A DNA stretch of 64,000 nt from an uncultured Schlesneria sp. (lineage in GTDB: Bacteria > Planctomycetota > Planctomycetia > Planctomycetales > Planctomycetaceae), in the NCBI GenBank assembly GCA_903904835.1, contig CAIVEI010000058.1, forward strand, positions 8,580-72,579, written 5' to 3'. The notes beneath the pieces were generated by a model. The model worked only from the letters and a program-made list of their open reading frames with translations, was not told where the DNA came from and did no database searches. Shown one piece after another: positions 3,257 through 31,905 of this stretch; within the stretch, counting starts at the first letter, position 1; each line of letters starts with the position of its first letter. The translations under genes were made by a program, and so were the position numbers.

Positions 3257-3277
3257 AGAGCCGGTTGAAGGAAGTCA

Positions 3278-4405: not shown

Positions 4406-4443
4406 TCGGCGCGAACGGGGCTATTCGCAAGGATCGAGGGCTT

Positions 4444-6825: not shown

Positions 6826-8115
<1,290 letters not shown>

Positions 8116-8232: not shown

Positions 8233-9159
8233 ATGGTGGGGTCTCGAACGCGGAAAACAGACGATTGTCGAAGCGGATTCACGTTAATTGAATTGATGGT
8301 CGTGATCGTGATCATCTCGATCCTGATGGCATTGATCCTCCCCGCGATCGGTGGGGCAATCAAGAACACGCGTATTGCGGGTGTTGTTAACGAAATCAAC
8401 CAGCTTGATTCGGCGATCGCCAGATTTAAGGCGGATCATGGAATCGAACCTCCTAGTAGTATTGTCCTTTGCGAAAAGTCCACTGATTGGACAAGTAACA
8501 CGTCAACCATTAACAGTGCGGCTCTGATTCGTCAGATCTGGCCGAGCTATGATTTCGGCAACCACGACATCAATGGCAATGGGACGACAACTGATATCAT
8601 CACCTTAAGCGTCGGCGAATGCCTGGTTTTCTTTCTCGGCGGAGTGAATGGCAATGACACTCCAGGTACGTCGGCTCAAAACAATATCGCAGGTCAGATC
8701 GGTCCATGCACTGGTTTCTCGAAGAATCCGGCGAGTCCGTTCGACCGGGGTGGGTCCAGTCGCGAAGCGCCATTGTTTGAGTTTGTTCCATCAAGATTCA
8801 CTGACATTAATAAGAACGGCTTTCCCGAATACAAAGACAATCTTCCCTCGCAAACGAATCCCTATCTCTATTACAGCGGTTACGACGGACAAGGGTACGC
8901 AACAGCGACGGAGTTTGGCGGGGGGGCATTGACCAGTCCTTACCTGCAGGGATCAACACTCACCAGCCAACCCTGGAAGCCCAACGGACATCAGATTATT
9001 TCCCCTGGCTACGATCGGGCTTATGGGTTCGGTGGGCCATATTTACCAAAGACAACCGATCCTCTTCCGGCAGCAAGTTCTGGTTCGCCGACGATCAAAG
9101 AACGACAGCCGGAATTAGACAATATTACCAACTTTTCGAATGGTCAACTGCAGCCATAG
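8233..9159 (+). CDS. prepilin-type N-terminal cleavage/methylation protein (pilin/pseudopilin, 308 aa)
   Basis: Short basic leader, then G|FTLIELMVVIVIISILMALILP with Glu+5. RBS aggaa lies upstream of the ATG. Confidence 0.8.
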   Translation: MVGSRTRKTDDCRSGFTLIELMVVIVIISILMALILPAIGGAIKNTRIAGVVNEINQLDSAIARFKADHGIEPPSSIVLCEKSTDWTSNTSTINSAALIRQIWPSYDFGNHDINGNGTTTDIITLSVGECLVFFLGGVNGNDTPGTSAQNNIAGQIGPCTGFSKNPASPFDRGGSSREAPLFEFVPSRFTDINKNGFPEYKDNLPSQTNPYLYYSGYDGQGYATATEFGGGALTSPYLQGSTLTSQPWKPNGHQIISPGYDRAYGFGGPYLPKTTDPLPAASSGSPTIKERQPELDNITNFSNGQLQP

Positions 9160-9217
9160 TTCCTTGTCGCTTAACGTTACGTGCCTTCGTTTGCTTTAGT
9201 TTCCAGGTGTTTCGAAC

Positions 9218-10486
9218 ATGTCCCGCAACACGAAAAATCGCCGTGACGGCTTTACGATGATCGAGTTGCTGGCCGCCATTGCGGTCATCGCGCTGATGAT
9301 GGCGTTGTTAACAACAGCTTCGTATCGATTTATTGTCAGCGCGCGGGAATCGGCCACTGCAACGACAGTGACAAAGGCCAGTGGGATCATCCAGGATCGC
9401 GTCCGGGCATTTCGTGAGTTTGATTTTTCCGACGCCGGTACATTTGGCGCCAACAACTGGAACGCGAATAACCCATCGGATCAGATGACACCCCAATTGG
9501 CTGAGGTGATCTTTCGAAAGACTCGATACAAAAAAGCGTTTCCACAAGCGTGGGCCGAATTGGACAAGACGCAGTTGTCACGTTTGTTTCCGGATTTCCC
9601 AATTTCGAACCCAACGTTTCCTCTGGATTCGTCAACGTTCCCTGCCACATACAAACCAAAATTTGAGTCGGGAATCATTCTTTACGCACTGCTGTTACGA
9701 GGCGAGACCTTTGGTGCGCCAACACCGACGGACGATGCGTTTACCGGGGCAGAAATCAAAACTTCGGCAGAAACGTTAGGACTTCCTTGTCTGGTCGATG
9801 CGTGGGGTGAGCCGATTCGATTCTACCGGTGGCCGACTCGATTGATCCGCTGTGGGGAACAGAATTTTTCCGGGGCATCTGGATCGTCAGCGTTTGACGA
9901 TATCAATCAAAATACGACGCAAGATCCGGCGGGATGGGTAGAAGCTTCTGGTAGTAATTCCGCAACGTTCAGCCCGGCAATTCGTCCGAATTCCCTTTTC
10001 CCTGGGGCGACCCCTGCTTCACTGTTAATTTCTAACATGCCACCGTTTGATCCTGCCAGTTCTTTTTCTAAAGGCCCTGACCTTAGTCCGGGGAATAGTG
10101 GTGGGTCACCGCCATTCTCGACTTTAGGTTTCCCTGATACTGACGACCCCGAGTCACTAAACATCGATCCCGATGATCCATCATTTCAACTCTCTGCTTG
10201 GCTGTTTGACCCGAACGCCACGACGGCGGTAACAGCCACGCGAAGAGCTCAGTTTGTTGTGGGCGTGCATGACTTTTTCACTTTCCATACGCCTTTGATC
10301 ATCTCGGCGGGTCCCGATAAACAGCTTGGTTTGTTTGAGCCAACCGATGTCCCTACGACAGCCAATCCGAACTCATTGAACTTCGGATATTTAGCCGCGC
10401 CAATCTTGACGCCGACAGCGAATAAAAGTTTGCAGGTGTTGTTTGACAATATTACGAACTTAAATCAGCGCGCGGGGGGTAAATAG
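9218..10486 (+). CDS. GspG-like pseudopilin, enlarged (422 aa)
   Basis: RDG|FTMIELLAAIAVIALMMA with Glu+5. VDAWGEPIRFYRWP resembles the GspG DPWGxPY motif. Confidence 0.75.
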   Translation: MSRNTKNRRDGFTMIELLAAIAVIALMMALLTTASYRFIVSARESATATTVTKASGIIQDRVRAFREFDFSDAGTFGANNWNANNPSDQMTPQLAEVIFRKTRYKKAFPQAWAELDKTQLSRLFPDFPISNPTFPLDSSTFPATYKPKFESGIILYALLLRGETFGAPTPTDDAFTGAEIKTSAETLGLPCLVDAWGEPIRFYRWPTRLIRCGEQNFSGASGSSAFDDINQNTTQDPAGWVEASGSNSATFSPAIRPNSLFPGATPASLLISNMPPFDPASSFSKGPDLSPGNSGGSPPFSTLGFPDTDDPESLNIDPDDPSFQLSAWLFDPNATTAVTATRRAQFVVGVHDFFTFHTPLIISAGPDKQLGLFEPTDVPTTANPNSLNFGYLAAPILTPTANKSLQVLFDNITNLNQRAGGK

Positions 10487-10488
10487 CC

Positions 10489-11568
10489 ATGCGGCGCTTT
10501 CGTCTAATACAGCACTCGCAAATGTTGTCGATGTCCAACCGACGTGCGTTCACGTTAGTTGAACTGTTGGTTGTGCTGGCAATCGTACTCATTCTGGCTG
10601 CTGTCACGATCTCTTCGGTGAATTTTTCCTATAACGCCGATCGGATGCGCGCTGGTGGCCGGCAGCTCCAGTCCTTCTTGATGGGTGCGCGAGACAAGGC
10701 AATCTATGCGAATGAAGTGCGTGGGGTCCGGTTACTATTAGATCCCAATGACAATCATGCGGTCAGTGCGGTTCAATATATCGGTGCACCACAGCGCGAG
10801 ACCGGGATGTTGACTTTTAATTTTGCGACGACGAGTGACTCGACCGGCAGAACAGTGAGTTTTATCTCAGGAACTCCTTGGGCCAGTCTTTCGCGGCGTG
10901 GCTTTTTACGCGTCGGAAATCGAATTCAAATTCCTCAGGATACAGGGGCGTGGTTTACAATCTCGGCCTTTAATGCGGGGTCGGGACTGATCTTGCTGAA
11001 TCGACCTAATCCTGATCTCGCGGGAACGGTCAATCCGATTTCGTTTGCACTCGAATTGGCATCGACCCCGCTGGGTGATGCTCAACCGGTTCAATTGCCA
11101 CGTGGAACAGTGATCGATCTGGATGGTTCGCAGGTGCCGAGTTCTTGGCGCCCATTTAGTTTGGCTGCGTCTTATTCGCCGCAAATGGACATTCTGTTTA
11201 CCCCGCGAGGGACTGTTATCGGCGATACTACGACGTTAGGAATAGTCCATCTGCTGGTCTCAGACGCCAGTGACGTCTTGAAATGGAAGACAACGGCATC
11301 GTTAAGTGGAACAACAAGCAATAATGTAAAGTATGGACGGAACTCGACGTACTACGTTCCGAGTTCGTTGCCGCTGGTTCCCGCTGAAAACACATCAGTG
11401 ACACCTCCCATCGTACCCAAAGACCGAATCATTGTGACGATTTCAACTCGTACCGGTAATGTCGCGGTCTATCCCATAAACCCTGTATCCCAGTCGAGCT
11501 CAGGTAATCCGAGCCTGGCTGCTGATGCTTTTCTTTTTGCTGAGTCGGGGCGGGTGGCAAACAAATGA
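10489..11568 (+). CDS. GspH/FimU-like minor pseudopilin (359 aa)
   Basis: RRA|FTLVELLVVLAIVLILAAV followed by ...RAGGRQLQSFLMGARDKAIY, the GspH/FimT-type helix. Confidence 0.7.
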   Translation: MRRFRLIQHSQMLSMSNRRAFTLVELLVVLAIVLILAAVTISSVNFSYNADRMRAGGRQLQSFLMGARDKAIYANEVRGVRLLLDPNDNHAVSAVQYIGAPQRETGMLTFNFATTSDSTGRTVSFISGTPWASLSRRGFLRVGNRIQIPQDTGAWFTISAFNAGSGLILLNRPNPDLAGTVNPISFALELASTPLGDAQPVQLPRGTVIDLDGSQVPSSWRPFSLAASYSPQMDILFTPRGTVIGDTTTLGIVHLLVSDASDVLKWKTTASLSGTTSNNVKYGRNSTYYVPSSLPLVPAENTSVTPPIVPKDRIIVTISTRTGNVAVYPINPVSQSSSGNPSLAADAFLFAESGRVANK

Positions 11569-12755
11569 AACGCAGACCTGAGCCAATTCATCAAATGTCA
11601 GCAAACCCACGACTTGGGGTGAGCCTCATCGAGGTCCTCGTGTCTGTGATGATCATGAGCATCGGCGTCGCGCTGCTTTCGACCCTGTTGCCCATTTCCA
11701 TTCTGCGCACGGCTCAAGCCACGCAGCTAACGCAGTCGGTCTTCTTAAGAAACAATGCCGAGGCATTGATTGAAGCCAATCCAAATATTTTGAACTCGGT
11801 TCCTGTTGGTTCCCTGGGCCTGATTGATCCTATGGGTGCGAGTATTAGTATGCCAAAAACGCTTTATGGAAATACTGGTGCAGGTTCCATCTCGCGGTTC
11901 CCCCTGCCGAACGCCAACGGTACTCCCAGCATTACGGCAGACGCTGCACAACAACTTGCGTCGCTTCCCGATTCGTGGACGGATTTATTCGAGACGAATG
12001 TGACCGATTACAAATCCTCTCCGTCCCAGGTCACTGTGGCCAAAATCCCGACAACGATCACACCCTGGAATTCCAATAACTTGAGCAACGCGAAATATCG
12101 AATGATCCTGGTCGACGTGACCGGTAAGATTGCCGTTATACGCAGTGTGCTTGGAGTCGACGGAACAGCATATACATTGGCTTGGACCGACGGCACGATC
12201 ACTGAGCCTGATTTGCCGTCAGGGTTCACTCCGATCAAGGCACGGGTCGAAGTGCAGTCGCGGCGATTTACCTGGCTGATGACTGTCTCAAAATCTTCGG
12301 TCCCCAAGTTTGCAGGCGATAATTTGAGTTGGGCGACCGAAATCGATGTAGCGGTTTTCTTTAACCGATCATTCAAGCTCGACGAAGAAAAACCTCTCGC
12401 TTTGAGCTTGGTTTCAAACGGGTTTGATGGCAAGCCAGGCGTGGCAGGTGTGGACGACGATGGGAATGGGACAGCAGACGATGCCAGTGAAACGGGTTGG
12501 CCCGGTTCCGATGACAATCGGACCGTTGATGTGACCGGCACGCCGTTTCTCAAAAAGGGGAGCTACATGCTTGAGGCGTCATTGCTCAAGTGGTATCGGA
12601 TCGTTGATTTCCCTGAAAACTCCACGACTAATCCTCGTATCTTATTAGATCGAGATCTTCGTACGTCTGTCGTGTCAGGAGTGACGTCGACAGGCGTTTT
12701 CATGAAAGGGATTGTCGAAGTCTATCCCATTGGCGTTCGTACCGGACAGAATTAG
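11565..12755 (+). CDS. GspI/PilV-like minor pseudopilin (396 aa)
   Basis: LG|VSLIEVLVSVMIMSIGVALL (PilV/GspI-type). Start overlaps the previous stop (ATGA). Confidence 0.7.
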   Translation: MKRRPEPIHQMSANPRLGVSLIEVLVSVMIMSIGVALLSTLLPISILRTAQATQLTQSVFLRNNAEALIEANPNILNSVPVGSLGLIDPMGASISMPKTLYGNTGAGSISRFPLPNANGTPSITADAAQQLASLPDSWTDLFETNVTDYKSSPSQVTVAKIPTTITPWNSNNLSNAKYRMILVDVTGKIAVIRSVLGVDGTAYTLAWTDGTITEPDLPSGFTPIKARVEVQSRRFTWLMTVSKSSVPKFAGDNLSWATEIDVAVFFNRSFKLDEEKPLALSLVSNGFDGKPGVAGVDDDGNGTADDASETGWPGSDDNRTVDVTGTPFLKKGSYMLEASLLKWYRIVDFPENSTTNPRILLDRDLRTSVVSGVTSTGVFMKGIVEVYPIGVRTGQN

Positions 12756-12919
12756 TTTCAAAGTATGTGTTATCGACGTTTGTCACGAAAACAAAACGTT
12801 GAAGTTTTAATAGTCAGTCAGCCTCGTTGAAATGGTTATTAAGTTTTCAGGCATCCCAGCAGCGGTAATAAAGTCTTTGGTGACATGTCGATAATGTGCA
12901 TTGTGTGCGGAGTCAAATC

Positions 12920-14686
12920 ATGAAGAAGGTCACTACAAACGTCGATCGCCGCAGACGGCACAGGAGTTCCGGCTTTACGCTGGTGGAATTGCTCGTGGTC
13001 GTTGGCCTCGTCTTGTTGATGATGTCGATGTTTGCCCAGATTTTTGTGATGGCGACCGACACCTTGTCACAGCAGCGCGGAATTGCCGAAAACGATCAGC
13101 GAGGCCGTTTATTGTCAATGACGATTCGCGGCGATCTGGATCGCCGGACCTTCCGTGATGTTTTGCCGTTTCGTGCCAACGAAGATACACGACAACTTGG
13201 GCACAGCCTGGCTCGTCGATCGGGATATTTTGAGATTGATGAAGGAAGTTCGAGCAGCGGTGAAGACGACGTTTTGCAGTTCACCGCGTCCGTCAATATT
13301 TCACTGCACGCGAGTAACAGTGCCCCGTTTGTGGGACGATCAGCCTCGCTGAGCGGGCAGACGATCCAAAGCCTGTCGAGTAATACCATCACGCTTTCTG
13401 GTGATTATACATCGGTGATTTCGCTTTCAAGTCCACTTTGGATTGCTGGTAGCACCTCATCCGCTGGTTACTCAAATAATGGTCGATATTTTCCCACTGC
13501 AGTGAGTTTCAGTAATAACGTCACGACAATCACGTTTCCGTCGAATAGCTTTAATACAAGGGCTCATGATTCATCCGTCGGTGCAACGGCCCCGTGGGGC
13601 GTACTATGCCTTTCCGAATCGGACCCCGATTTTGATGATGGGGTTTTCGGAAACGGCTCGACGATTTCATCGACTGCGGAGATCAGCTACTTCCTGCGCA
13701 ATGGTAACTTGTATCGCCGCGTTCTGTTGATCCGCGATACCACCAATGGTGGTGATGCCCAGCCGACCTGGTCTAACGGGACGCCGATCCTCTGGGGTGC
13801 GGCGACAGCCTCAACCGAAAATTATGGGAGCGTTAATACCGCCAATTCGTCGACGTTCTGGCGCGACTTCGATTTTTCTGCTTTTTACTACGGCGGAGTC
13901 AATACCTCGACTGGAGTGGTCATGAAGGGAATTCGACTTCATGATACCCGTGATTCAATGAGCAACAGCAGTCAGCCTGCTGTGATGCTTGTCGACGAAA
14001 CCAAAAGCCCGGTCACGTTGTTCCCTATCAGCTTGGGGATTCCCCATTTACGATTTGGACACAGCACGCGGACTGGTTTTCCTCAGGATATGGTTAACAT
14101 TCCGACTCGATTCGTGTTGCAGGAATGTGCGAATTCCGCATTTGGTTACCCGGGTAATATCGATGGAGGGAACAATCCGTTCGACACCCCAAATCTCACA
14201 TTGAATTCCAGTACTGCACTCTCCGATCCCGGTCTGGTTACGTCATTTTCCGGCCAGACGTTTCGACGGGGTGAAGATATTCTGATGACGAACGTGTTGA
14301 CATTTGACGTCAAGGTCCTTGATCCGAATTCGGGTTCTTTTGTGAACCTGGGTGATGATTATGCCCCGCTTGGGAGGGGTATGACCATTCCGACGTTTGG
14401 AAAGTCCTCCACTCATCGATTGAATACGACTTACTCACCAAACGATCATTACCGGTTTGATACCTGGCATCCCCTTGCCAGTGTGGGGACAGGTGTCAAT
14501 GATAACGAGCCTCCCTACGTTCCTTTCAGTTTTTCGTCGGGAAAGGCGGTCCCTCTTTCCGCCATTCAGATCACGATCAATTATCGCGATCCGTCGAGCA
14601 ACCAGGTTCGGCAGATGACCATCGTACAGTCGCTTGTTGATCGCTTGAAACCAGCCAGCGTTACGAACGAGGCTCCTGAAGAATAG
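12920..14686 (+). CDS. GspJ/PilW-like minor pseudopilin (588 aa)
   Basis: SSG|FTLVELLVVVGLVLLMMSMFAQIF. ATG 12920 follows ggag; the track start at 12896 is a GTG. Confidence 0.7.
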   Translation: MKKVTTNVDRRRRHRSSGFTLVELLVVVGLVLLMMSMFAQIFVMATDTLSQQRGIAENDQRGRLLSMTIRGDLDRRTFRDVLPFRANEDTRQLGHSLARRSGYFEIDEGSSSSGEDDVLQFTASVNISLHASNSAPFVGRSASLSGQTIQSLSSNTITLSGDYTSVISLSSPLWIAGSTSSAGYSNNGRYFPTAVSFSNNVTTITFPSNSFNTRAHDSSVGATAPWGVLCLSESDPDFDDGVFGNGSTISSTAEISYFLRNGNLYRRVLLIRDTTNGGDAQPTWSNGTPILWGAATASTENYGSVNTANSSTFWRDFDFSAFYYGGVNTSTGVVMKGIRLHDTRDSMSNSSQPAVMLVDETKSPVTLFPISLGIPHLRFGHSTRTGFPQDMVNIPTRFVLQECANSAFGYPGNIDGGNNPFDTPNLTLNSSTALSDPGLVTSFSGQTFRRGEDILMTNVLTFDVKVLDPNSGSFVNLGDDYAPLGRGMTIPTFGKSSTHRLNTTYSPNDHYRFDTWHPLASVGTGVNDNEPPYVPFSFSSGKAVPLSAIQITINYRDPSSNQVRQMTIVQSLVDRLKPASVTNEAPEE

Positions 14687-14800: not shown

Positions 14801-17800
14801 ATGAAACCAATTCCATTTGCTCGACAGAATCCCGCCCGGATCGAGACGCGGCGTGGATCAACCCTGATCATCGTCGTTGCTCTGCTTGGGATGCTCGCCT
14901 TCCTCGGTTTTGTGTTCTACACATTTGCCAAGCAGGAAAAGGCGAATGCCGCATCGTTCGCCAAAGGGGCTCAGATCCTGAAGGCTCCGTCGCTCGAGCC
15001 CGATTCGTTATTCGACTTCGCTCTCCAGCAGATCATCCTTGGTCCACCTGACGCGTACACACAGAGCATTCTCTGGGGCGGGCGGCATTCGCTGTTAGCG
15101 AATATGTTCGGTCGAGACGGGGTTCCCTGGAATGGCGAGGGAGTGAACCTGATTCAAGACCCGTCAGGTCAGCCGCATGTCGATATGAACTTTAACGGCC
15201 TTTACAATGATCCTAACGATAATCAGCTTTTGATAAATTTTGTTGATTCGCCAGCGGCGAATTCGGGAACTTGGAGCTCTGGTACATCGGATGCCGTTTG
15301 GGGTTATCAAGGTTCGACGAATTTTAAGATCTTTCGCGGAACCGGGAACACGAATACAAATTTGAATTTCTATATTCCCGAACCGGACGTGAACTATAAT
15401 TCACCGAATATCGACAGTCTGTTTCTGTCTTATGACGGAATTGCCTTGGATGGCACCGCAAACACGACAAATTCCAGGCGAGTGATCATTCCTTCATTTT
15501 TGCGGCCTCAGTACTTGCGACTTGCCGGTACTGTTCTGCTTGAAGACGTTAATCGAAACGGCATTCTTGATCCCGCGAATGGCAGTAACCCGGGTGAAGA
15601 TTCAAACGGAAACGGTCAACTCGACGACTGGTATCAGTTGCCTGCGTTTGCAAATCAGGTGATGCGGCCGCATCCAAATCATGTCTGCGTCGATGGAAAC
15701 GGGAATCCGATTTTCGCCGATTCCAATGGCAAAAACGTACTCGCCAGATACATCAATTCAATTCGGTATTACACCTTGAAGAACAGCGGCGTCTCCTTAC
15801 GGCGACCATTTACGTCGCTTGCGGCAAACGACGGTTCTACACCAGGGACATTCGCACCGCCCGAAAGCTCGCTTCCAACGCCGACAACGAATTCGAGTGC
15901 AACTGTCGCTTCTTCAACAACTCCTGGAAGTCTTGGTGTCTGGACTCCGGGTGCAGGCGCTTCCCCCAATAATGTTTCAGTTGGTGCCGGCGATATCGAC
16001 CTGGATGTCGATACGGATGGGGATGGAGTCATGGATGCGATCTTGATGGATCTTGGCTTTCCACCAGTTCGCCGGGGTGACGGCAAACTGGTTGTGCCTT
16101 TGTTCGCCATTAGCATTCGCGACTTGAACGGGTTGCTGAATGTCAACGCGACCGGCAATCTTTCAGGAAATCTGAATCTCACAGGGCCCGCTGGTTTGGG
16201 GGCGATTAACTCAGGCACGACCCCTCCTGCGGTACCACCAACCCAACTTGGATTTCGCCAGACCGGTGGAACCTATTCGAGTAATAAATGGACCGGCGTG
16301 GTATCGACACCTGATAACCTGTCGAAGTCGAATCTTGGGTTGAGTACCTACGAAATCAACATTCAGCGGGCGTTGACCGCGAACCCTGATCGCAATGCAG
16401 CGAACCTGGATAACTCACTTTTAGGGAGCGAAGCAGCGACGCAATTGAGTTATTTCCTGCAACAGTTTGATACGAGCATTAACACGTACACACTATCGCA
16501 GCCGGGACGGTCGATTACAGAACTTGCCAATCTGGAATGGTTGCTCTTGAATATCGGACGGCCAGGCTTTCAATTGGGTCTCGCGCATTCGGCGACTCAT
16601 CTTTATGGCGCGATCAACACGATTTATGCTGGCCGAATGGGCGATCCGACCCGTCTCTGGAATTTTGCCTCCTCACAGACGCTGACAGACATTCCCAAGC
16701 CTGGACTGTCGACAATCTGGGCCGGTGGGACAACAACGAACTGGCCGCTTGCTGCAAACTCCACTTTGCCGAACCCTGACGACAATAATAATGTGAACGA
16801 GGGTGAGGCCATCTTTAATACACGATGGGGCACCCCGCTCGATTTCCGTGGTTCAGGGCAGGCGTTCCAGCGATACACATTCGGGCCAGACGGAAAGCCG
16901 GGCTTTGCCAATCAGGATGATGACGCCAACGGGGTCATTGATGACATTTCTGAAGAGGGATGGAGCAATTCTGACGATGTCCTTGCCTATGGAAAATACC
17001 CCGAGTTTGCGCATTATTCTCCCAATCCGTCAGGAACCAGTGCGATTTATTCGCTGAATTACAAACCAGGAGGAAACCCAATCACGCCATGGCTCTCATG
17101 GCCAACTTATCAGGGGTATCACTCGTATAATGGCTCAACCGGCGGTGTTCGCTGGGGGGATCAGCAGACGACGGGCTATTATCAATGGTTGATGCCGGGT
17201 TCGCATTGGGATTCGTTGCTTGACGACCCTGCTGAAGCGATCATCGATCCCGTGTTGATGTCGCCAGCGTATCTGAACTTTGTGAATTATCTCTACAAAC
17301 TGACACAGGACTCGTCGTCATCGAACCCCATTCCGCCTGGATACCTGCCGCCGTCCCCTCTGCAGGGATTAACTTCCACCGCGACGGCGTCTTATTCAAA
17401 TTCCATCTCGAATGACGCCGTGTTTGGCCCGGAAGAAATGCTGTTTCTGCAGGGAAGTTCGGCGGACGGTCGTCTGACCGACTCACGATCGCGATTAGCG
17501 GATCTGATGCCAGGGAACCTGGTGGCCAGCCAGAATGCTCCCTCAATCCGTAAGCGTCTGACAACCGTCAGTCAGGATCGTCGCGAATTCGGGCTTGGCG
17601 TAGCGGATGTTGGCGGGGTGACGACATCGGGTGGCAATTCGACCTCCGGTGGTCTCCGTTCATGGGAAGTTCTGACATCCGGCTTTCCACCGTCACTCAC
17701 GAACGGTACGGCAAACCCGTATCGGCAGGAGCTGTATTCCTTTTTACAGCAGTCGAATACCAGCGGAGTTGTCTCACAGAAGCTGAACGTCAACCGCTGG

Positions 17801-20665
17801 CTCTATCTGGATGGTGCCACACAAACTCAATACGGGTTCGCCCCGCTGCCCGAACAGACATCACCATCAGACGCCAACGCGGCCATGGCACGGCAGCAGA
17901 TGGCTCGCGATATTTACACACTGCTTTACACTTTCTGTTCCGTGCAGACCAACGGGACAAGTGGTGATGTCGATTATCGGAACCTCACGACGGCACCCAC
18001 TGCGGCACAGACGAAAGAAATGGCCCAGTTTGCCGTCAACCTGGTCGACGCGTTGGACGCTGACAACATCGTCACCGCGTTTTACTACGACACGGATCTC
18101 TCACAAAACGGACACGGATGGCAGACAACTTCAACGAGTACGCAAGACTATATGTATGGTATTGACGGAATCGCAGGTAATGCCGATGACAATGTTGTCT
18201 ACGGTGTCGAACGTCAGTTGCTGACATTCTCGGAAGCAGCCGCATTCATCGTGCAGCGTGTGGCAACAGACAGCAATATGACGATTTTTGACGACTCACA
18301 GACGTCGGCTAATGGCCGGCCTTACATTTTCTTCGAATTACAAAACGTGTCACCGATCCCCGTGGCGCTCGCCTCATCGTCGAATATCACAGCGCAGACC
18401 GCCACGACCATGGCGGACTGGCGTGTCCGCATGGTATCCCCCACCGACGAAACCAAGACATATAGCACACTTTACTTTCTACCTGGTTTGACAACGTCGT
18501 CGGGCGCGACGCCAAGCAATTTTCTTTCGACAGATCCGACCGGTGGGGCAAATCCTGTTTTACTTCCTGGTGCCGTATTTTCAGTCGCTTCGCAGGATGG
18601 TACCGACACAGTGATGGGGGCCGCCCGGACAAGCGATTTTCGTGCTGACACGTCGTTGATGGGGTCCTCTTTTCCACTTGCGGTTCCTACGGCGAGTAAC
18701 ATTGCAGGTGGCTTGACTGATATGCCAATTACTCCGTCGACGAAGACAACCGATATGGTTCCAAGGTGCAATCTTGATCTCGTGTGGAGTTACCCAGATA
18801 ACAACAAGCGTTTTCTGGTGACAACGGGAACGAATGACACGGCAGCACCGACCCCCGGCGCTTTTGCTGTTCAGTTAGGTCAACTTGCTGCGGCAAATCC
18901 CAATAACACCGTCCGGTTGATACTGGAAAGACGGGCAGCCGCCGGTCCAGACGTACCGAACAATATCGTTTGGGCTGCTGTCGATAAGACGTCTTCGACG
19001 GCGACAGGTGCAGGTGCAGGTGCACCACCTGTGCCAGGCGGAACAAGCGATGTCGTTATCGGCAAGGTAACGCCGCCAGCGAATGCTGCGGGTGGAGGTG
19101 CAGTAACATCGGCGCTTCAAAATGTGAAGAGCTACCCTCGTTCGATTCCATTGCTCAGCGCAACAACATCGACGAACACAACCCTGGATAAGAACACCAT
19201 CAATGCTGCGAGCACCACGACGGCAAACACGAATCTCAATTCCGTCGCGTGGCAATTGCATAACGACCGTGACTTTGGCTCGCTGAGCGAACTGCTTCTA
19301 TTGCCGCTCTATGGTTCAGATAACCTGACTTCTGCGCTCGCAAACGTGATTGATACCAACACGGGGCATATCTCAACCAGCGAATTTTACGAAGCAAATC
19401 AAAAATACTACCCGACAATTGCGGCGGCTCGTTTCCTGCGTCCGGACAATCCTGATTACACGAAAAACGGAACAACGCCCAATTACGGGAATCGCTGGTA
19501 TCGCCTGTTTGATTTTCTGGAGGTTCAGAACCGAAGCCATCAGCATCCAGCGATTGTCGGTACTCCACCTTCCGGGGGGATTCTCAACAAAGGGAACGCG
19601 ACAAATTATGGCATTCCGATCACCTTTAACAATCCAGGGATGCCGGGTGTCACGTCGTATTACCCGACGGGCTATCCGACAACAGTGACACAAGGGGGAA
19701 ACCCACCCGATGGTCCCTTCCCGACAACGATGATGTTTTCAGCGCCGTTTGGATATCCACAGTATTTTGGCTGGCCTAAGACGCACGGGCTGTTGAATCT
19801 GAACACGATCCGCGACCCGCAGGTATTAGCGGCCTTGATTGATGACGATCAAGTGATTCAAGATCCCCGCGTTAATCTCAGTGGGTCAGCAGGGCCGTAT
19901 CTCGATTCCGCTGATCCGTCAGATGCCAACAGGAAGTGGTGGTTCGAATTCCTTAAAGCCCGAGATTCGCGATATGTAGCACCCGCAAACGGGACCGCAT
20001 ATGCCGTCGATCCCGTCACCAATCTGTTCGTTCCAGGCACGGCAAATTCGCGGCCATTCCGAAGTGTCGATACTGTCGGTCCACAGGCAGTGAGTATCGT
20101 GGCGGGGGCAAACCTCGATAGCCAGCTTGAAAATACGATTTTTCGGTCATTACCAATGGACTCAGGATCAATTACTAACAGCGTCAACGAGTCCCGTCGG
20201 CTGTTCGAAGTCGGTAACAACGGGACCGATCATATCGGGCCGATTGACACCGAAGCGAGCGGAAATCCTCTTCATCCATCGGCGCGCTTTCGGTTGATGT
20301 CCAAATTACTCAACAACACAACGACCCGCAGCAATTCTTTCGCGGTTTACATCACGGTTCAGTACTACGAAGCGGTGCAGGTTTCCGGGTTTGTTGGCAC
20401 AGGTCAGAATGCGACTCCGACCACCGCTGTGCAAATCGGCGGTCGGCTGGATGACGCACCGACGCATCGGGGATTTTTCATCGTGGATCGCACGGGTGCG
20501 ATCGAACAAATGAAAATTCTCGCGACGAACAACGGCGGTACGACCAGTGGTGTTAGCTCAAACAGCTATAGTTTCAATGCGAATACCGACAAAACGGGCC
20601 TGCTGGTTAATCTGAACGGGATCAGGTGGAAAGATCTGGTCCTTTACCGTCAAACGATGAACTGA
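14801..20665 (+). CDS. giant GspK/PilX-like pseudopilin-family protein (~1954 aa), putative pilus-tip adhesin
   Basis: RRGSTLIIVVALLGMLAFLGFVF is a pilin-like helix without Glu+5, as in GspK/PilX. The gene sits last in the G-H-I-J-K order. The C-terminal TRSNSFAVYITVQYYE...RGFFIVDRT resembles GspK C-termini. Acidic DxDxDG-type loops are present. ATG at 14801; the track start at 14696 is a TTG. Confidence 0.65.
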   Translation: MKPIPFARQNPARIETRRGSTLIIVVALLGMLAFLGFVFYTFAKQEKANAASFAKGAQILKAPSLEPDSLFDFALQQIILGPPDAYTQSILWGGRHSLLANMFGRDGVPWNGEGVNLIQDPSGQPHVDMNFNGLYNDPNDNQLLINFVDSPAANSGTWSSGTSDAVWGYQGSTNFKIFRGTGNTNTNLNFYIPEPDVNYNSPNIDSLFLSYDGIALDGTANTTNSRRVIIPSFLRPQYLRLAGTVLLEDVNRNGILDPANGSNPGEDSNGNGQLDDWYQLPAFANQVMRPHPNHVCVDGNGNPIFADSNGKNVLARYINSIRYYTLKNSGVSLRRPFTSLAANDGSTPGTFAPPESSLPTPTTNSSATVASSTTPGSLGVWTPGAGASPNNVSVGAGDIDLDVDTDGDGVMDAILMDLGFPPVRRGDGKLVVPLFAISIRDLNGLLNVNATGNLSGNLNLTGPAGLGAINSGTTPPAVPPTQLGFRQTGGTYSSNKWTGVVSTPDNLSKSNLGLSTYEINIQRALTANPDRNAANLDNSLLGSEAATQLSYFLQQFDTSINTYTLSQPGRSITELANLEWLLLNIGRPGFQLGLAHSATHLYGAINTIYAGRMGDPTRLWNFASSQTLTDIPKPGLSTIWAGGTTTNWPLAANSTLPNPDDNNNVNEGEAIFNTRWGTPLDFRGSGQAFQRYTFGPDGKPGFANQDDDANGVIDDISEEGWSNSDDVLAYGKYPEFAHYSPNPSGTSAIYSLNYKPGGNPITPWLSWPTYQGYHSYNGSTGGVRWGDQQTTGYYQWLMPGSHWDSLLDDPAEAIIDPVLMSPAYLNFVNYLYKLTQDSSSSNPIPPGYLPPSPLQGLTSTATASYSNSISNDAVFGPEEMLFLQGSSADGRLTDSRSRLADLMPGNLVASQNAPSIRKRLTTVSQDRREFGLGVADVGGVTTSGGNSTSGGLRSWEVLTSGFPPSLTNGTANPYRQELYSFLQQSNTSGVVSQKLNVNRWLYLDGATQTQYGFAPLPEQTSPSDANAAMARQQMARDIYTLLYTFCSVQTNGTSGDVDYRNLTTAPTAAQTKEMAQFAVNLVDALDADNIVTAFYYDTDLSQNGHGWQTTSTSTQDYMYGIDGIAGNADDNVVYGVERQLLTFSEAAAFIVQRVATDSNMTIFDDSQTSANGRPYIFFELQNVSPIPVALASSSNITAQTATTMADWRVRMVSPTDETKTYSTLYFLPGLTTSSGATPSNFLSTDPTGGANPVLLPGAVFSVASQDGTDTVMGAARTSDFRADTSLMGSSFPLAVPTASNIAGGLTDMPITPSTKTTDMVPRCNLDLVWSYPDNNKRFLVTTGTNDTAAPTPGAFAVQLGQLAAANPNNTVRLILERRAAAGPDVPNNIVWAAVDKTSSTATGAGAGAPPVPGGTSDVVIGKVTPPANAAGGGAVTSALQNVKSYPRSIPLLSATTSTNTTLDKNTINAASTTTANTNLNSVAWQLHNDRDFGSLSELLLLPLYGSDNLTSALANVIDTNTGHISTSEFYEANQKYYPTIAAARFLRPDNPDYTKNGTTPNYGNRWYRLFDFLEVQNRSHQHPAIVGTPPSGGILNKGNATNYGIPITFNNPGMPGVTSYYPTGYPTTVTQGGNPPDGPFPTTMMFSAPFGYPQYFGWPKTHGLLNLNTIRDPQVLAALIDDDQVIQDPRVNLSGSAGPYLDSADPSDANRKWWFEFLKARDSRYVAPANGTAYAVDPVTNLFVPGTANSRPFRSVDTVGPQAVSIVAGANLDSQLENTIFRSLPMDSGSITNSVNESRRLFEVGNNGTDHIGPIDTEASGNPLHPSARFRLMSKLLNNTTTRSNSFAVYITVQYYEAVQVSGFVGTGQNATPTTAVQIGGRLDDAPTHRGFFIVDRTGAIEQMKILATNNGGTTSGVSSNSYSFNANTDKTGLLVNLNGIRWKDLVLYRQTMN

Positions 20666-20955
20666 ATCGATGTCACCTTCGGAACGGTTCAATGTATACA
20701 GCAGCGTGAAAACGCGCTAGCGAGAGGAGGCTAACGACGCAAAATCTAACAAACAGTCCATATGGACGGAAAAGCTGTCAATCTCGGTAACTCGATATCC
20801 TGTAAAGACTAAAAAAAACATTGGAATTGCGGCTTCTGATTTGCTAAGTTGTTTATGCGGTTGCGCGTTGCAGTCGAATGGCGACTTCGACCAGAAGCGA
20901 ACTTTTAAAATTCTTGTTCGAAACCTGTCGCCCACATCTATTTGGAGAGTCTGTC

Positions 20956-22071
20956 ATGACACGTCTACGCCTTTCGACAAAACGCCAGCCGCGCCGCGGC
21001 TTCACCCTGATCGAGCTTCTCGTCGTGATCTCGATCATCGCCGTCCTAGCCTCGCTCATCGCCCCCGCAGTCCAATCAGCCCGCCGTGCCGCGAGAAAAA
21101 TGGAATGCTCGAGTAACATGCGACAAGTTGGCATGGCGATGATTAACTTCGCTTCGAGCAATAACGGAACGTTGCCAGCATTGACAACTACGATCAACAT
21201 CACAAACAACAATGGTAACGGAGTAATGGCTATTGGTTGGCCGATTTCGATTCTTCCGCTTCTCGACAATGCGGCCCTATTGAAGAACATCAAAAATGAT
21301 GCTTTTATCAATTCGGGGGTTGCTACAATTAACGGGCAGGATACCATCGATACGATTGATGATACCGGCTGGATCCAAGTGTTTAGCTGTCCGGAAGACA
21401 TTCATTCCTACCGACGTCCAGGTGGACTAAGTTATGTAGTCAATTCCGGATTTTGGTCTAGCTCAAATTGGGGTATCGGTGAGACTTCTACCAGCACTGC
21501 TACGTCCAGTGGATTTCAGCAAGTTGGTGCGGTAAGTTGGGACGGCGACAGCAATCTTTTTAGTACCACAGATGTGACTGTGCATGCTTCTACCGGCGTG
21601 ATTTGGCGGTCGACGAGTAATTTTCAATCGACGATTGACTTCGTTGCGACGGGTGATGGAAGTTCTACAACCATGTTGGTGTCGGAAAATCTTCAGGCTG
21701 GGAGATGGTTCGACATTGATGCGAACTCGCTCGGCTTTGGAATTCGAATTGTCACCAGTAGCAATCAGCCAACAGCAGCGGAGTTTGTGTTTAACAGCGG
21801 TGTCCCTACACTGCAAACAGAGACTACAACGTTCGCGACACCAGATCCTGCTACACGACCCGATAATTGGTTCATCAATCATAACCTCGGTGCTGTAGAG
21901 AAGACGTCTCCAAGACCTGCCTCAAATCATGCCGGTGGCGTTAATGCAATGATGTGTGACGGGTCGGTCAAGTTTCTCAATGAAAGTGTCGACAAAAATA
22001 TTTACGCGAAGCTCGTTACTTCGAACGGCGTCAACTTCGGCGAACGTTCATTGAATCAATCTGGCTTCTAA
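20956..22071 (+). CDS. DUF1559 / prepilin-type H-X9-DG protein
   Basis: RRG|[36 protein letters not shown]..., and C-terminal [12 protein letters not shown] (H-X9-DG). RBS ggagag before ATG 20956. Confidence 0.88.
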
Positions 22072-24555: not shown

Positions 24556-24867
24556 TCACTTGAGCCTCTGGACGTTCTCGACGAACAGACGGCTGGCCAG
24601 TTCGAGATCGGCGAGGGGAAAATTCATGGCGGTTCGGTCGAGGATCAGTTTGTCATGATCGACATGGAAGACGGCGATCAGCCATTTCCCGGCCTTACAG
24701 GCACGGTCCAGACTGGCGGCGACATCGGGTGGCATCTTGGTGACAATATTGTCCGCTGAATCGGTCAGTCGTGCCTTACCATCTGGTTCCGTCCCATCCG
24801 TCGCATGCGTCCCATCAGTCCCATGTGTTTTTGAAACTTTCTTGCAAGTTGCTTTTTTCATTTCCAT
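24556..24867 (-). CDS. hypothetical protein (103 aa), last gene of the phage-like operon
   Basis: Start overlaps the upstream stop (ATGGAAATGA), which suggests translational coupling. No recognisable motif. Confidence 0.5.
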   Translation of the reverse strand: MEMKKATCKKVSKTHGTDGTHATDGTEPDGKARLTDSADNIVTKMPPDVAASLDRACKAGKWLIAVFHVDHDKLILDRTAMNFPLADLELASRLFVENVQRLK

Positions 24868-25373
24868 TTTCCCAAAGGGCAGGCCTCGGTTGCCAGGGCC
24901 AGTTTGTTGATTAATTGGTTGGTTTCGACACAGGGGCAGCCACAGACCCGGCAGTGGTTGTCAACGAGGTGTGGGCATGCCTGGCAAATTGCCAGGCGTT
25001 CATCGATTTCCGCTTGAGTCCGTCGAGGCATCCCGGATGACGTCCATCGAAACATCGCACTGGCGAAGTTCACGCCACGAATGATGAGTGGTGGAACGGT
25101 GTTGTCTTCCGTCGATTGCGGGGTGTTTTTGAAATCATGATTTGTAATCAGAGCGCGTTGAAGGCGTGCGCGTTTTGCAATGTCTCCGGTCGACCCCAAC
25201 GGAAACGATTCAACGATGTCCAGCAGCTCCGCCGCTAATTCCGGTCTGCCAAAAATGCGGCAGCATTCGGCGAATTCAATAGCCCGTGAAAGAGACTGAA
25301 CTGAGTTTTCACACGGGTTTGTCCCTCGTATCGAAATAACAGCATCAACAATCACCTGACAGTTCTTCACCAT
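24858..25373 (-). CDS. hypothetical Cys-rich (putative zinc-binding) protein, 171 aa
   Basis: C-terminal ICQACPHLVDNHCRVCGCPC...EACPLGKW cysteine cluster. Start overlaps the upstream stop. Confidence 0.55.
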   Translation of the reverse strand: MVKNCQVIVDAVISIRGTNPCENSVQSLSRAIEFAECCRIFGRPELAAELLDIVESFPLGSTGDIAKRARLQRALITNHDFKNTPQSTEDNTVPPLIIRGVNFASAMFRWTSSGMPRRTQAEIDERLAICQACPHLVDNHCRVCGCPCVETNQLINKLALATEACPLGKWK

Positions 25374-25792
25374 GTTACCTTGATATTATATTTGTTGCAG
25401 CCTCCGGTCCCTGAAGTCGTAATTATCATGCCGTTTATTGGTGTTAACGAAGATCCAGTCGAGTCGCAAAACGCATCAATTACGTGGATTTGAAGTACAC
25501 AGCTGCTTATTCGGCAGACGAGCGCAAATGACTGTGTAAAGAATCCACTGGACGATGCCGTCCAAGAGTCGGTGCCCGGGTCATATGTCAATGTTTTTGA
25601 AGTTAATCCGCCATCGAAAATTGTCCCGGAAACAATCGTGAACATGACAATCGCAGTCAAAGGCGGGCATCCGCAGGTTATCGCGTTAACTGTTCCTGAC
25701 GAACTCGAACTACTGCTAGAGGACGACGATGAACCACAACAGGGGCAGCCCTTGAGAACGACGATGTCACCGGGATTTGGCATCAGCAGCAT
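25367..25792 (-). CDS. hypothetical poly-Ser/Cys protein (about 141 aa), possible fibre or receptor-binding component
   Basis: MLLMPNPGDIVVLKGCPCCG-S12-GTVNAITCGCPP. ATG at 25792 overlaps the stop of the upstream gene. Confidence 0.5.
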   Translation of the reverse strand: MLLMPNPGDIVVLKGCPCCGSSSSSSSSSSSSGTVNAITCGCPPLTAIVMFTIVSGTIFDGGLTSKTLTYDPGTDSWTASSSGFFTQSFALVCRISSCVLQIHVIDAFCDSTGSSLTPINGMIITTSGTGGCNKYNIKVTW

Positions 25793-26397
25793 CCTCTTGC
25801 CTGGCCGTAGGTGACGGTCAGTGAGCCACCCGCACAACTGACTCCAGTGACAACCGTGATACATCCGCAGGGGGCGGTGCTGCTGGATGAACCCGATACG
25901 GACTGAGACGACGTGTTTGAACTGGAACTACTACTGCTCGACGCCGAACTTGACGATGAGTTGCAGATTGACGTAGGGACACGCTCGAACGTTCGCAGAA
26001 ACATCGATCGTTTGGGAATGCCTCCGTTTTGACTGTGACCTTGAGCAAAAAATCCGACGGTATTACTGTTTCGTGTCAGCACCCACGATCCATCCGTCGG
26101 CCCCCATTCTTCACCGGGTGCGGGATCGCTGATCGTTGGATCGACCGACACGTAAATGAACTGGTCAAAATAGGCCAATCCTTTGGCACCGGAGGCAATC
26201 GAAATATTTCCCGTGACCATGATATTGCCTGGTTTGCCGCAACCGTACTGGCCGACATGTGTAAATGACGTTGCCTCATTGTTTGTCGTTGCGGCGATCG
26301 TTTCGACGGACAGCGCAACGACGATTGATCGGGGTGGAATGGTCATTCCCGAATCGTTCTGAATGACAACGCTGATGTTTGGGGCAAGTGCGGTCAT
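25783..26397 (-). CDS. hypothetical protein with C-terminal poly-Ser/Cys region (204 aa)
   Basis: ATGA overlap with the upstream gene. C-terminus ICNSSSSSASSSSSSSSNTSS...APCGCITVV...GCC. Confidence 0.55.
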   Translation of the reverse strand: MTALAPNISVVIQNDSGMTIPPRSIVVALSVETIAATTNNEATSFTHVGQYGCGKPGNIMVTGNISIASGAKGLAYFDQFIYVSVDPTISDPAPGEEWGPTDGSWVLTRNSNTVGFFAQGHSQNGGIPKRSMFLRTFERVPTSICNSSSSSASSSSSSSSNTSSQSVSGSSSSTAPCGCITVVTGVSCAGGSLTVTYGQARGCC

Positions 26398-28262
26398 GTA
26401 TTCACATTCCCCAGGTAAGCGTTACGTCTGGCCGATTCGTATTTGACGTATTGGATTTTCTCTGAGATTCCCTGCCGCGCCGTCATCTGCCGTCGTTCTT
26501 CATAGTCTGGCGTGATATAGCTGTGTTCTGTCCCCTGACTGGCGATTGTCGAGGCGCCACTTTTGTTGATCGAATACGTCACCTGACAAATTGCGCCATC
26601 CATGTCGATGGGGAAGAGGCCGATAAACGTGGCCCGCTCGCTCGTCACCGTCTGAAACTTCCTGGCGAGCGATTGCGCGTAGTATTGGCACTGATCGACG
26701 ACTTCACCGTAATTTGTGGTGTAGGCTGAGGGGAGTCCATTGAAATAGCTCTGAACAATAACGGTGGGCCGGATATCGTCTCGAATCACGGTGTAGGCAA
26801 AGTCCTTGTCGCTGCCGCTGCCGATCTGCATCAGAAATTCGTAACGAATCGGCTGCCATGTGTCCGGGTCGCGTACCTGAAATGCATTCGTGAATGCGAG
26901 ATTCGCTTCCACCCATTCAATCGAGCTCGTATTCCTGACGACCTTTCCCTCCACGACGGAGGTGTATGAAACCGTCGTCGGATTGATTTGCTGCAACAAC
27001 TTTGGTGATACGGAAATGATCGACCGGTCGGTATCAACCGGGTCGAGGCTTAACGAAAACGAGGCTCGTTCATCCTCGCCGGAATCAGATTTCGCCCCCT
27101 GTTTATCGATTCGCGTGCCGTTCGAGCAATTTGCCAACAGTCCCTCGCACTGTTTTCCGTAGAACGAGCCTGTGATATAGGCAGGCCGTTGATGCAGCGC
27201 GCCCAGATTGTCAGTCCACATCTGCGCGAGTTCATTTGACAGGATGATCTGTTTTCGCGTGACGGGCTTGTCGATCGTCGGGACGGGATAAACCCAGTTT
27301 CCGTTACTGTCTTGTGTCGCGCCCGGTGCGTTCTCAAATTCAATTCGATAGGAATTGAAAATGGTCTCTCTCGCAAGCTCCTGGATGCTGATTTTCGTTC
27401 CATCCGGCAGCAGAAATCGAGTTGAATCGAGCCAACGAAATTCAGCACAGTCGTTTTGCCCGAATCCTCCCGACGAAAACGTTTGCGGGGTGCCACTCGA
27501 TGCTTTGATGAGAATTTCGTACGAAAGAGGCGCGTACGACAACTGTCGAAGCGGCTTCCAGCTTAAATCGGTCTCCTTTCCGATGGCCCTCAGCGGCAGT
27601 TGCATTTGATACCTGACAGGTGCCGTCACGATTTTGATGAAGTCAGGAACCTCCTGGGGGTCGATTCCCTGGCCGACATCTTGCGAGGGAAAGTTTGGAA
27701 GATCGGCACCATCCCCGGTCACAACGATTCGCCAGCTCTGCGTTGAACGAACGGGAACGACTCGACAACCAAGATCATTGCACAGCTTGTCGAGTTCTTG
27801 CGACGCGCTGGTATGGTCCCAGTCACAATCCGGGCGTGCGTCGTTTGGCAGCGCGGTCACGTCAAACGTCGATTCGCCAAGGGCTTGAAACAGTAACGTT
27901 GCAAGCTGTTGCGGAGTCTGCTCGTGGGCGGGGTCAATCCAATTATTCGGCAGTCTGATGTTGTATCGGCCCGTGATAAATCGATGGACCCATTTCCAGC
28001 GGGAATCCATGAATCGGACATCGACAATCTGTCCGCCCCCGCCGACTTCGTATTGTACGGAATCGATATGAGCGGCCGGGATCGTAATCGTCTGATTATT
28101 GTAGGTCATGACGATATCGCCATCCTCATCGGGCAATCCGTATTGCGGGAAGACCTTCATTGTTCCAATCGCCGGCTGGACGCCGGAAATATCGGTGAAC
28201 TCAAACGACTCGACCGCGGTGATGCCGGGATAAGTCACATTTCCGTGGTTATAAAGCGACAT
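26394..28262 (-). CDS. phage tail tip/hub-position protein (about 622 aa)
   Basis: Large gene in the Tal/hub position, second gene downstream of the tape measure. RBS gaggag 5 nt before ATG 28262. No motif recognised. Confidence 0.5.
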   Translation of the reverse strand: MSLYNHGNVTYPGITAVESFEFTDISGVQPAIGTMKVFPQYGLPDEDGDIVMTYNNQTITIPAAHIDSVQYEVGGGGQIVDVRFMDSRWKWVHRFITGRYNIRLPNNWIDPAHEQTPQQLATLLFQALGESTFDVTALPNDARPDCDWDHTSASQELDKLCNDLGCRVVPVRSTQSWRIVVTGDGADLPNFPSQDVGQGIDPQEVPDFIKIVTAPVRYQMQLPLRAIGKETDLSWKPLRQLSYAPLSYEILIKASSGTPQTFSSGGFGQNDCAEFRWLDSTRFLLPDGTKISIQELARETIFNSYRIEFENAPGATQDSNGNWVYPVPTIDKPVTRKQIILSNELAQMWTDNLGALHQRPAYITGSFYGKQCEGLLANCSNGTRIDKQGAKSDSGEDERASFSLSLDPVDTDRSIISVSPKLLQQINPTTVSYTSVVEGKVVRNTSSIEWVEANLAFTNAFQVRDPDTWQPIRYEFLMQIGSGSDKDFAYTVIRDDIRPTVIVQSYFNGLPSAYTTNYGEVVDQCQYYAQSLARKFQTVTSERATFIGLFPIDMDGAICQVTYSINKSGASTIASQGTEHSYITPDYEERRQMTARQGISEKIQYVKYESARRNAYLGNVNT

Positions 28263-28463
28263 TTGCTCCTCACGTTCGTAACCGTTCACGGGCTGGGGAC
28301 TGACGCATTTTCATGGAGACAAACGGCGAGCCCCGATGAGCAAACGACATCGGATTCGTCGTTTGCCCGTCGAAGGGTTCTGTCCATGTGCATTGTTCCG
28401 TTGTCCAACGCCGTGAAGGAATTTGCGGTAAGATTCGCGGTGAATCAGGCGATCCGACGAAAC

Positions 28464-28590: not shown

Positions 28591-28645
28591 CGGTGCTTTC
28601 ACGGCGTCGCCGCGTTGCCTCAGCCACACTTTTAAAAATCACAGG

Positions 28646-29386: not shown

Positions 29387-29393
29387 CTGTTGC

Positions 29394-31897: not shown

Positions 31898-31905
31898 CCC
31901 ATCTG

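Follow-up and report, generated by a model that had tools for sequence, protein, structure and literature searches.

A probable giant GspK-class subunit, enlarged by several insertions, encoded in a planctomycetal type IV pilus-like operon

The last gene of a pilus-like operon in an uncultured Schlesneria sp. (GenBank assembly GCA_903904835.1, contig CAIVEI010000058.1; we analysed 64,000 nucleotides, positions 8,580 to 72,579 of the forward strand, referred to below as the window) encodes a giant protein. With a probability of roughly 0.7, we take it to cap a planctomycetal type IV pilus-like filament as an apical subunit of the GspK/PilK class, in which a GspK scaffold has been retained and at least four insertions have raised the size about six-fold. 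Judged from alignments and structure models, this scaffold would comprise an alpha-1 helix that lacks Glu5, a pilin beta-sheet, an alpha-domain and a C-terminal strand. The original prediction had described an open reading frame (ORF) of about 1,950 amino acids (aa) with a long middle part rich in T, S, N, G and A, and both length and composition hold: the gene runs from an ATG at 14801 to a stop codon at 20663-20665 on the + strand, and its 1,954-aa translation, which opens with MKPIPFARQNPARIETRRGSTLIIVVALLGMLAFLGFVFYTF, contains 9.5% T, 9.2% G, 8.8% S, 8.6% A and 8.3% N, with three cysteines only. The mechanical ORF begins upstream, at TTG 14696 (to 20665), and its first ATG is that at 14801, a start supported by close homologues, which share the same initial Met (MKPIPFARQ).

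The relationship to GspK emerges when the whole family is compared with it. A first homologue search returned 94 homologues, all of 1,324-2,207 aa and aligning over the full length. Set against a GspK alignment of 34 sequences, built from Escherichia coli K-12 GspK and its homologues, default HHalign gives six alternative local alignments, five of them strictly colinear with GspK: the N-helix with the N-helix, FAISIRDLNGLLNVNA with GspK VKWQLRDAQHCFNLNA, LVDALDADN with GspK IADYIDVDD, DRDFGSLSELLLLPLYG with GspK NQMLFLTGELRQIKG, and GLLNLNTIRDPQVLAAL with GspK LSINLNMLTENDIPLF. Because huge insertions overwhelm normal gap penalties, HHalign was rerun with near-zero gap extension, and a single chain then spans GspK columns 1-315 of 334 with a score of 150, adding the meander RSNSFAVYITVQYYE (against YSRYFTLSTESISDE) and the last strand DLVLYRQTM (against SAQIYRRTL). 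The unrelated PilB obtains a nominal probability of 97% in this relaxed-gap regime, and nominal probabilities were therefore discarded in favour of an empirical calibration. Over 322 core GspK columns the family scores 144.2, compared with 68.4±4.5 (maximum 77.5) for column-shuffled, 88.2±6.7 (maximum 105.5) for block-shuffled and 63.7 for reversed profiles. Removal of both N-helices leaves 111.1, compared with 64.0±6.6, 78.2±6.5 (maximum 88.3) and 60.5, respectively, while an independent subfamily whose identity to the window protein is 22-24% reaches 163.3 (column-shuffled 66.9±6.8, block-shuffled 81.5±6.1, reversed 59.4). Under the same settings, unrelated families score 64-73 (PilC), 81-98 (PilB, 569 columns) and 82-86 (the first pilin of the operon), and GspK thinned to four sequences still gives 121-130. 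At the level of sequence, and by this non-standard analysis only, homology of the giant family to GspK across the whole GspK length is supported.

These controls speak to a quite improbable alternative, according to which a membrane-anchored giant surface or periplasmic protein merely co-occurs with a pilus operon, its resemblance to GspK being convergent or an artefact of motif chaining. Every standard homology and fold search is negative, as detailed below, and relaxed-gap nominal probabilities are inflated even for unrelated families, both of which would suit such an explanation. However, none of the 148 shuffles in the three analyses, no reversed profile and no unrelated family reaches the chain score, and the result is replicated in the independent subfamily. 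Block shuffles retain the motifs but lose their order, and they score much lower, so that motif order matters and the excess over them indicates colinearity. The alternative is further contradicted by the strictly conserved position of the gene and by its GspK-type N-terminus, both described below.

The original prediction had envisaged one insert of about 1,800 residues between two GspK-like ends. This is not what we find. GspK-equivalent motifs occur throughout, at residues 435-450, 975-1089, 1489-1509, 1567-1575, 1660-1685 and 1715-1724, and at least four separate insertions interrupt what is, by alignment, a GspK homologue that has retained the GspK alpha-domain. The inserted residues total about 1,600, individual insertions measuring about 85 to 520 residues, and further, smaller ones lie toward the C-terminus. 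Conservation follows the same division: the 288 GspK-aligned residues have a conservation of 0.58 and an occupancy of 0.98, compared with 0.34 and 0.73 for the remainder, and 15 of the 39 positions that are invariant family-wide fall within residues 1031-1145. The features of the gene are as follows (all on the + strand), the AlphaFold evidence coming from two half-models, residues 1-1200 (predicted local distance difference test, pLDDT, 64.4; predicted template modelling score, pTM, 0.56) and residues 755-1954 (pLDDT 73.7, pTM 0.80).

14801..20665, +: gene for the giant, probably GspK-type subunit, stop included (translation; start backed by homologue N-termini)
14801..14857, +: basic leader ending RRG, residues 1-19, with a putative prepilin-peptidase site after G19 (sequence; presumed cleavage)
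14858..14980, +: hydrophobic alpha-1 helix, residues 20-60, with Ile at +5 (AlphaFold and HHalign)
15143..16102, +: insertion 1, residues ~115-434, including the acidic loops 249-276 and 398-419 (alignment; low-confidence AlphaFold model)
16103..16150, +: FAISIRDLNGLLNVNA, residues 435-450, matching the GspK strand and NLN motif, E. coli GspK 93-108 (alignment; N447 invariant)
16151..17701, +: insertion 2, residues ~451-967 (alignment; AlphaFold)
17702..18220, +: first part of the GspK alpha-domain, residues ~968-1140, with MARDIYTLLY, AQFAVNLVDALDAD and YGVERQ (alignment)
18221..19129, +: insertion 3, residues ~1141-1443, beta-rich, with predicted immunoglobulin-like (Ig-like) sandwich module(s) (AlphaFold strands, mostly pLDDT 80-93)
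19130..19525, +: continuation of the alpha-domain, residues 1444-1575, with DRDFGSLSELLLLPLYG (GspK 179-199) and YRLFDFLEV (GspK 200-208) (alignment)
19526..19777, +: insertion 4, residues 1576-1659, disordered, P/G/T-rich and lineage-specific (occupancy; pLDDT below 50)
19778..20293, +: second, helix-hairpin-helix-like part of the alpha-domain, residues 1660-1831, with GLLNLNTIRDPQVLAALIDD and WWFEFLKARD (alignment)
20294..20518, +: C-terminal pilin-fold beta-meander and following helix, residues 1832-1906, aligned to GspK 274-310 (AlphaFold; alignment)
20633..20662, +: extreme C-terminal beta-strand DLVLYRQTMN, aligned to the GspK strand SAQIYRRTL (AlphaFold strand 1947-1953; alignment; published model PMC13533445)

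Within the alpha-domain, AQFAVNLVDALDAD is the counterpart of the GspK DYIDVDD motif, the first part being predicted at pLDDT 87-95 over two long helices, and GLLNLNTIRDPQVLAALIDD corresponds to GspK 211-230, which are positions 1-17 of the Pfam T2SSK model. Insertion 2 is modelled as a compact alpha/beta unit (~520-630) and a helical bundle (817-917), with a poorly predicted stretch (637-808) between them, none of it with a significant match in Pfam, NCBIfam, the PDB sequence search or Foldseek. For insertion 3, Foldseek finds weak Ig-like matches only (lamin, UNC119; E>1). Occupancy in insertion 4 falls to 0.57 over residues 1576-1600 and to about 0.25 over 1601-1650.

Both ends of the protein had been singled out in the original prediction, as a non-Glu5 N-terminal helix and a GspK-like C-terminal beta segment, and both are present in the sequence. 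The N-terminus is pilin-like, MKPIPFARQNPARIETRRG↓STLIIVVALLGMLAFLGFVFY (the arrow marks the putative cleavage point), with Ile rather than Glu at +5; the RRG↓(S/V)xL motif is kept across the 94 homologues, AlphaFold predicts a 39-residue helix (residues 20-58), and HHalign pairs residues 12-39 with GspK residues 1-27. At the other end, the segment SNSFAVYITVQYYE...RGFFIVDRT (residues 1844-1898) belongs to the best-conserved parts of the family, D1896 and R1897 being invariant. It aligns to GspK and is predicted as a beta-meander, with strands at 1846-1853, 1856-1865, 1872-1882 and 1889-1896. A comparison of the C-termini of both families shows that the motif of the final strand is common to the giant family and to GspKs.

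The genomic context agrees with an apical pilin-type role. The giant gene stands last in a co-directional operon in the order PilB, PilT, PilB, PilC, five Glu5 prepilins and giant gene:

1326-3032, +: PilB/GspE-like ATPase with an MshEN domain (profile match)
3278-4405, +: PilT/PilU-family retraction ATPase, 431.8 bits compared with a curated cut-off of 319.1 (profile match)
4725-6428, +: second PilB/GspE-like ATPase (profile match)
6763-8115, +: PilC/GspF platform protein (profile match)
8233..14686, +: five Glu5 prepilins (308, 422, 359, 396 and 596 aa), directly upstream of the giant gene (N_methyl matches; N-termini; synteny)
20878..22071, +: DUF1559/HX9DG prepilin, immediately downstream of the giant gene (Pfam/NCBIfam match)

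All six neighbouring prepilins, the five upstream and the DUF1559 protein downstream, carry Glu5 within the signature G/A↓(F/V)(T/S)(L/M)(I/V)E, and the giant protein (RRG↓STLII) is the sole non-Glu5 pilin-like protein of the operon. The order PilB-PilT-PilB-PilC-4/5 prepilins-giant gene is kept at three further loci (L002, L003, L004), which belong to Gimesia chilikensis CP036266 and two distant metagenomic lineages, and the arrangement with the downstream DUF1559/HX9DG prepilin recurs in Gimesia and in metagenomic locus L004. As an observation in its own right, the two PilB/GspE-like ATPases flanking the PilT gene (1326-6428, +) are paralogous, both with a c-di-GMP-binding (cyclic dimeric guanosine monophosphate) MshEN N-domain; the PilB-PilT-PilB triplet is complete in L003 and partial, at the locus edges, in L002 and L004. 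At two to four times the canonical pseudopilin size, the five upstream prepilins resemble known families in the N-terminal helix alone, and weak N-terminal NCBIfam matches point to HpsB/C and to Verru_Chthon cassette proteins C and D.

The gene content also bears on what kind of filament is capped. One could imagine that the giant protein caps the short periplasmic pseudopilus of a type II secretion system, with a large body that handles substrates, for instance, in the enlarged periplasm of Planctomycetes and is not a surface adhesin. The homology is specifically to the GspK of type II secretion, alpha-domain motifs included, the platform protein fits GspF models slightly better than PilC models, and for the ATPases the PilB and GspE scores are almost equal. 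We nevertheless regard this as unlikely. A PilT-family retraction ATPase is encoded within the operon, above its curated cut-off, and type II secretion systems are not known to have one; it is because of this gene that a retractile pilus is preferred over a secretion pseudopilus. Moreover, a family scan found no GspC, GspL or GspM genes among the window ORFs, the pilins are oversized, and long pili-like fibres have been reported for Planctomycetes (PMC5394234). On the most likely reading, the giant protein sits at the apex of a planctomycetal pilus that can retract, and would display a large ligand-binding body there.

Several observations weigh against this assignment. Pfam and NCBIfam scans of the full-length giant protein return nothing, and neither does Pfam for 27 family members. 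The sole Pfam match of any of eight segments tested, T2SSK (PF03934) on LNLNTIRDPQVLAAL at the NLNT motif, reaches 13.6 bits and stays below the 24.2-bit cut-off; six segments searched against NCBIfam (E<=10) yield two chance-level matches only, and the whole protein none at E<=0.1. Neither phmmer with the giant protein nor hmmsearch with the family profile finds any PDB sequence at E<=10, and when default HHalign compares the GspK alignment with the family, or with the C-terminal 475 residues alone, the probability does not exceed 12%. In Foldseek searches of the PDB with both 1,200-residue half-models GspK is unmatched, with nothing below E=1 and Ig-like sandwiches at noise level; each half-model is missing part of the pilin fold (the N-helix plus both strand groups), and its very large insertions break local structural alignment. 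The homology claim thus depends on a custom gap regime, in which the empirical controls alone carry the weight. Secretin, PilMNOP and prepilin peptidase genes were not identified among the scanned window ORFs, and tip location, adhesion and calcium binding are all inferred. On the other side, the predicted order of secondary-structure elements is compatible with GspK, as read from half-models between which the fold is split. The original prediction of a GspK/PilX-class cap therefore stands in part, favoured by the colinear relaxed-gap alignment, by the position as non-Glu5 last gene and by the C-terminal strand, and left without backing by the standard profile and fold searches.

The original prediction had also pointed to acidic, calcium-loop-like motifs. 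All three are present, at residues 249-276, 398-419 and 706-715, but only the second is conserved family-wide. This motif (DxDxDxDGDGxxD; nt 15992-16057) has an occupancy of 1.0, its D402, D404, D406, G409 and D417 are invariant or nearly so, and it sits directly before the first GspK-equivalent strand. The first (nt 15545-15628) is a lineage-specific insertion with an occupancy of 0.13, and the third, at 0.42, occurs in under half of the members. GspK and XcpX bind calcium, GspK through two canonical sites (PMC6211770). Separately, tandem D-x-D/N-x-N/D-G-x-x-D loops, such as NEDRNGNGTLDPDEDVNGNGALDTGEDTNSNGILDKGEDDNGNGLIDRND, occur at varying positions among family members (C-terminal regions of the homologues P0090, P0058 and P0053, and window 15545-15628), as if an acidic mini-motif had been gained repeatedly.

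The family is large and uniformly giant. The 94 homologues come from Schlesneria, Gimesia, Thalassoroseus, Rubinisphaera, Rhodopirellula and many metagenomes, the closest being from a Schlesneria metagenome-assembled genome with 92% identity; none of them has a Pfam domain, and all names given by the sources are 'hypothetical'. Among 1.84 billion representatives, a profile of the C-terminal 475 residues matches at least 4,000 clusters at 50% identity, 3,515 of them at E<=1e-10. The best 150 cluster matches are proteins of 1,500-2,000 aa or shorter sequences that are probably truncated, and no normal-sized GspK that could serve as a bridge appears among the 150 listed matches. Another search, with a word-indexed profile, yielded 16 proteins, most of them short and from short contigs, and all without a name other than 'hypothetical protein'. 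All full-length members seen measure about 1,500-2,200 aa, and from this family-wide size and the kept gene order we conclude that the giant size is ancestral to a large clade and is no local fusion. We found no paper describing the family.

One apparent size intermediate, P0356 (828 aa), was rejected, since it is preceded by genes of 601 and 445 aa on a contig labelled 4x. At this locus (L005, 5750-11487) the three adjacent genes of 601, 445 and 828 aa occupy the expected place of the giant gene, the last one containing the C-terminal module; together they are probably a frameshift-split giant gene and not a short family member. A second protein considered as a possible bridge, P0350, was found on no contig.

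Elsewhere in the window, a prophage-like block lies at 32365-38966 (-), possibly extending over 24858-40405, with these Pfam matches:

32365-33270, -: phage tail tube, PF18906
33920-34477, -: Phage_tail_S
37677-38966, -: HK97-type capsid, PF05065

Several ORFs near the block (25367-31508 and 39083-40405) have no family match. Two very large ORFs, 52386-60788 (-; 2,800 aa) and 60835-63915 (-; 1,026 aa), have no Pfam match at E<=1e-3, nor does the 1,026-aa ORF match NCBIfam, and 49676-52372 (-) encodes an 898-aa DsbD-like thiol:disulfide reductase whose N-terminus is extended.

How such a subunit might work can be outlined with the help of a 2026 study, which proposed that a final beta-strand completing the sheet of the non-Glu5 PilK or GspK licenses assembly of the tip complex, the strand being supplied in trans by PilY1/PilC in type IVa pili and in cis in GspK and CpaL (PMC13533445). 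The basic leader and hydrophobic helix would anchor the giant protein in the inner membrane, where prepilin peptidase would cleave it. After export and folding of about 1,900 periplasmic residues, DLVLYRQTMN may close the pilin sheet in cis, by analogy with GspK and CpaL. The completed fold could then be recognised by the upstream-encoded, GspI/J-like Glu5 pilins to form an initiation complex, beneath which PilB would polymerise further pilins; lacking Glu5, the giant subunit could only sit on top. The inserted modules would in this way be carried to the tip, where they could form a large body for adhesion or ligand binding, on a filament that PilT would retract.

Planctomycetes have been reported to form long, dextran-binding pili-like fibres from crateriform structures (PMC5394234), and a 2025 review still called the players in planctomycetal macromolecule uptake unknown and raised the possibility that pili arising from crateriform structures contribute to it (PMC12673574). 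One could speculate, although we consider it rather unlikely, that the giant family is the tip protein of these molecularly undefined fibres, with variable modules capturing polysaccharides or surfaces, PilT reeling the cargo toward the enlarged periplasm and the C-terminal strand serving as a quality check. If so, only a fully exported 200-kDa tip would license filament assembly. The assignment favoured here, that of a GspK-class apical subunit, would give a role to a very large family for which Pfam and NCBIfam hold no model and which escapes standard homology and fold searches, and would offer a definite candidate for the proteins that underlie fibres and the capture of macromolecules in Planctomycetes. 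At 1,500-2,200 residues, its members would be by far the largest pilin-type subunits described. As a natural single-chain counterpart of PilK plus PilY1, the family would also make the strand-licensing model testable in a new phylum, and genetic tools exist for the related planctomycete Planctopirus limnophila (PMC11958385).

Among known systems, GspK/XcpX (Pfam PF21687 T2SSK_1st plus PF03934 T2SSK; structures 3CI0 and XcpVWX) comes closest. Shared with it are the RG↓(V/S)xL non-Glu5 N-terminus and the position as last gene after Glu5 pseudopilins; the colinear strand with D-x-x-x-x-NLNA, DxxDxD, sEL..(v/P).G and NLNT...L.aL; and the S.(Y/F)F.v beta-meander, the final phi-x-phi-phi-(Y/R)-R strand and an alpha-domain inserted in the pilin sheet. 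The giant protein differs in its six-fold size (1,954 compared with ~330 aa), in its at least four extra insertions, in falling below Pfam and NCBIfam thresholds, and in an operon that has PilT and is without GspC/L/M. A looser likeness exists to Verru_Chthon cassette protein A (TIGR02600) and cyanobacterial HpsA, giant proteins encoded beside pseudopilin genes: in each case a very large uncharacterised protein adjoins a prepilin-like gene set. Neither the whole giant protein nor its segments match the TIGR02600 or HpsA models in NCBIfam.

With the type IVa tip complex of PilK/PilX and PilY1/PilC, the giant protein would share a non-Glu5 apical minor pilin, a very large tip body, retraction by PilT and a C-terminal beta-strand completing the pilin sheet (model in PMC13533445), the difference being that a single polypeptide would serve both roles, with the strand in cis. 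The original prediction had suggested that PilX and PilY1 roles are combined in one chain, and as a functional idea this fits the published model. Homology to PilY1 is a separate matter. A true PilX-PilY1 gene fusion, that is, a PilY1/PilC-family tip adhesin with an acquired pilin-like anchor, might be expected to look like this protein in its size, its place beside minor pilins, its DxDxDG-type acidic loops and its terminal beta-strand. We consider it highly improbable: Pfam gives no PF05567 or other match at threshold, Foldseek no beta-propeller or vWA match in either half-model, and the GspK motifs run along the whole length and are not limited to an N-terminal module. The N-terminus, too, is pilin-like, unlike the Sec-type signal peptide of PilY1/PilC. 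Membership of the PilY1 family was accordingly rejected.

By architecture alone, the GspK-class subunit proposed here can also be likened to CpaL of the Caulobacter type IVc pilus, which carries an adhesin domain and likewise consists of a pilin-like module, a large middle and a C-terminal strand returning to the sheet in cis (PMC13533445); CpaL has one middle of ~470 residues, whereas the giant protein has several insertions amounting to ~1,600 residues, plus the GspK alpha-domain. Modular pilins, such as Streptococcus sanguinis PilB with its vWA module, Thermus ComZ with a beta-solenoid in the sheet and CofB of enterotoxigenic E. coli, similarly graft modules on or into the pilin fold for display at the tip (PMC8179133). 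The most extreme case in that survey has 860 aa (PMC8179133); the giant protein is far above this, uses several insertion sites, and its modules match no known domain. Apical non-Glu5 minor pilins with grafted modules are already known as a kind; new here are the scale, an architecture with insertions at several sites, and a family that is phylum-wide.

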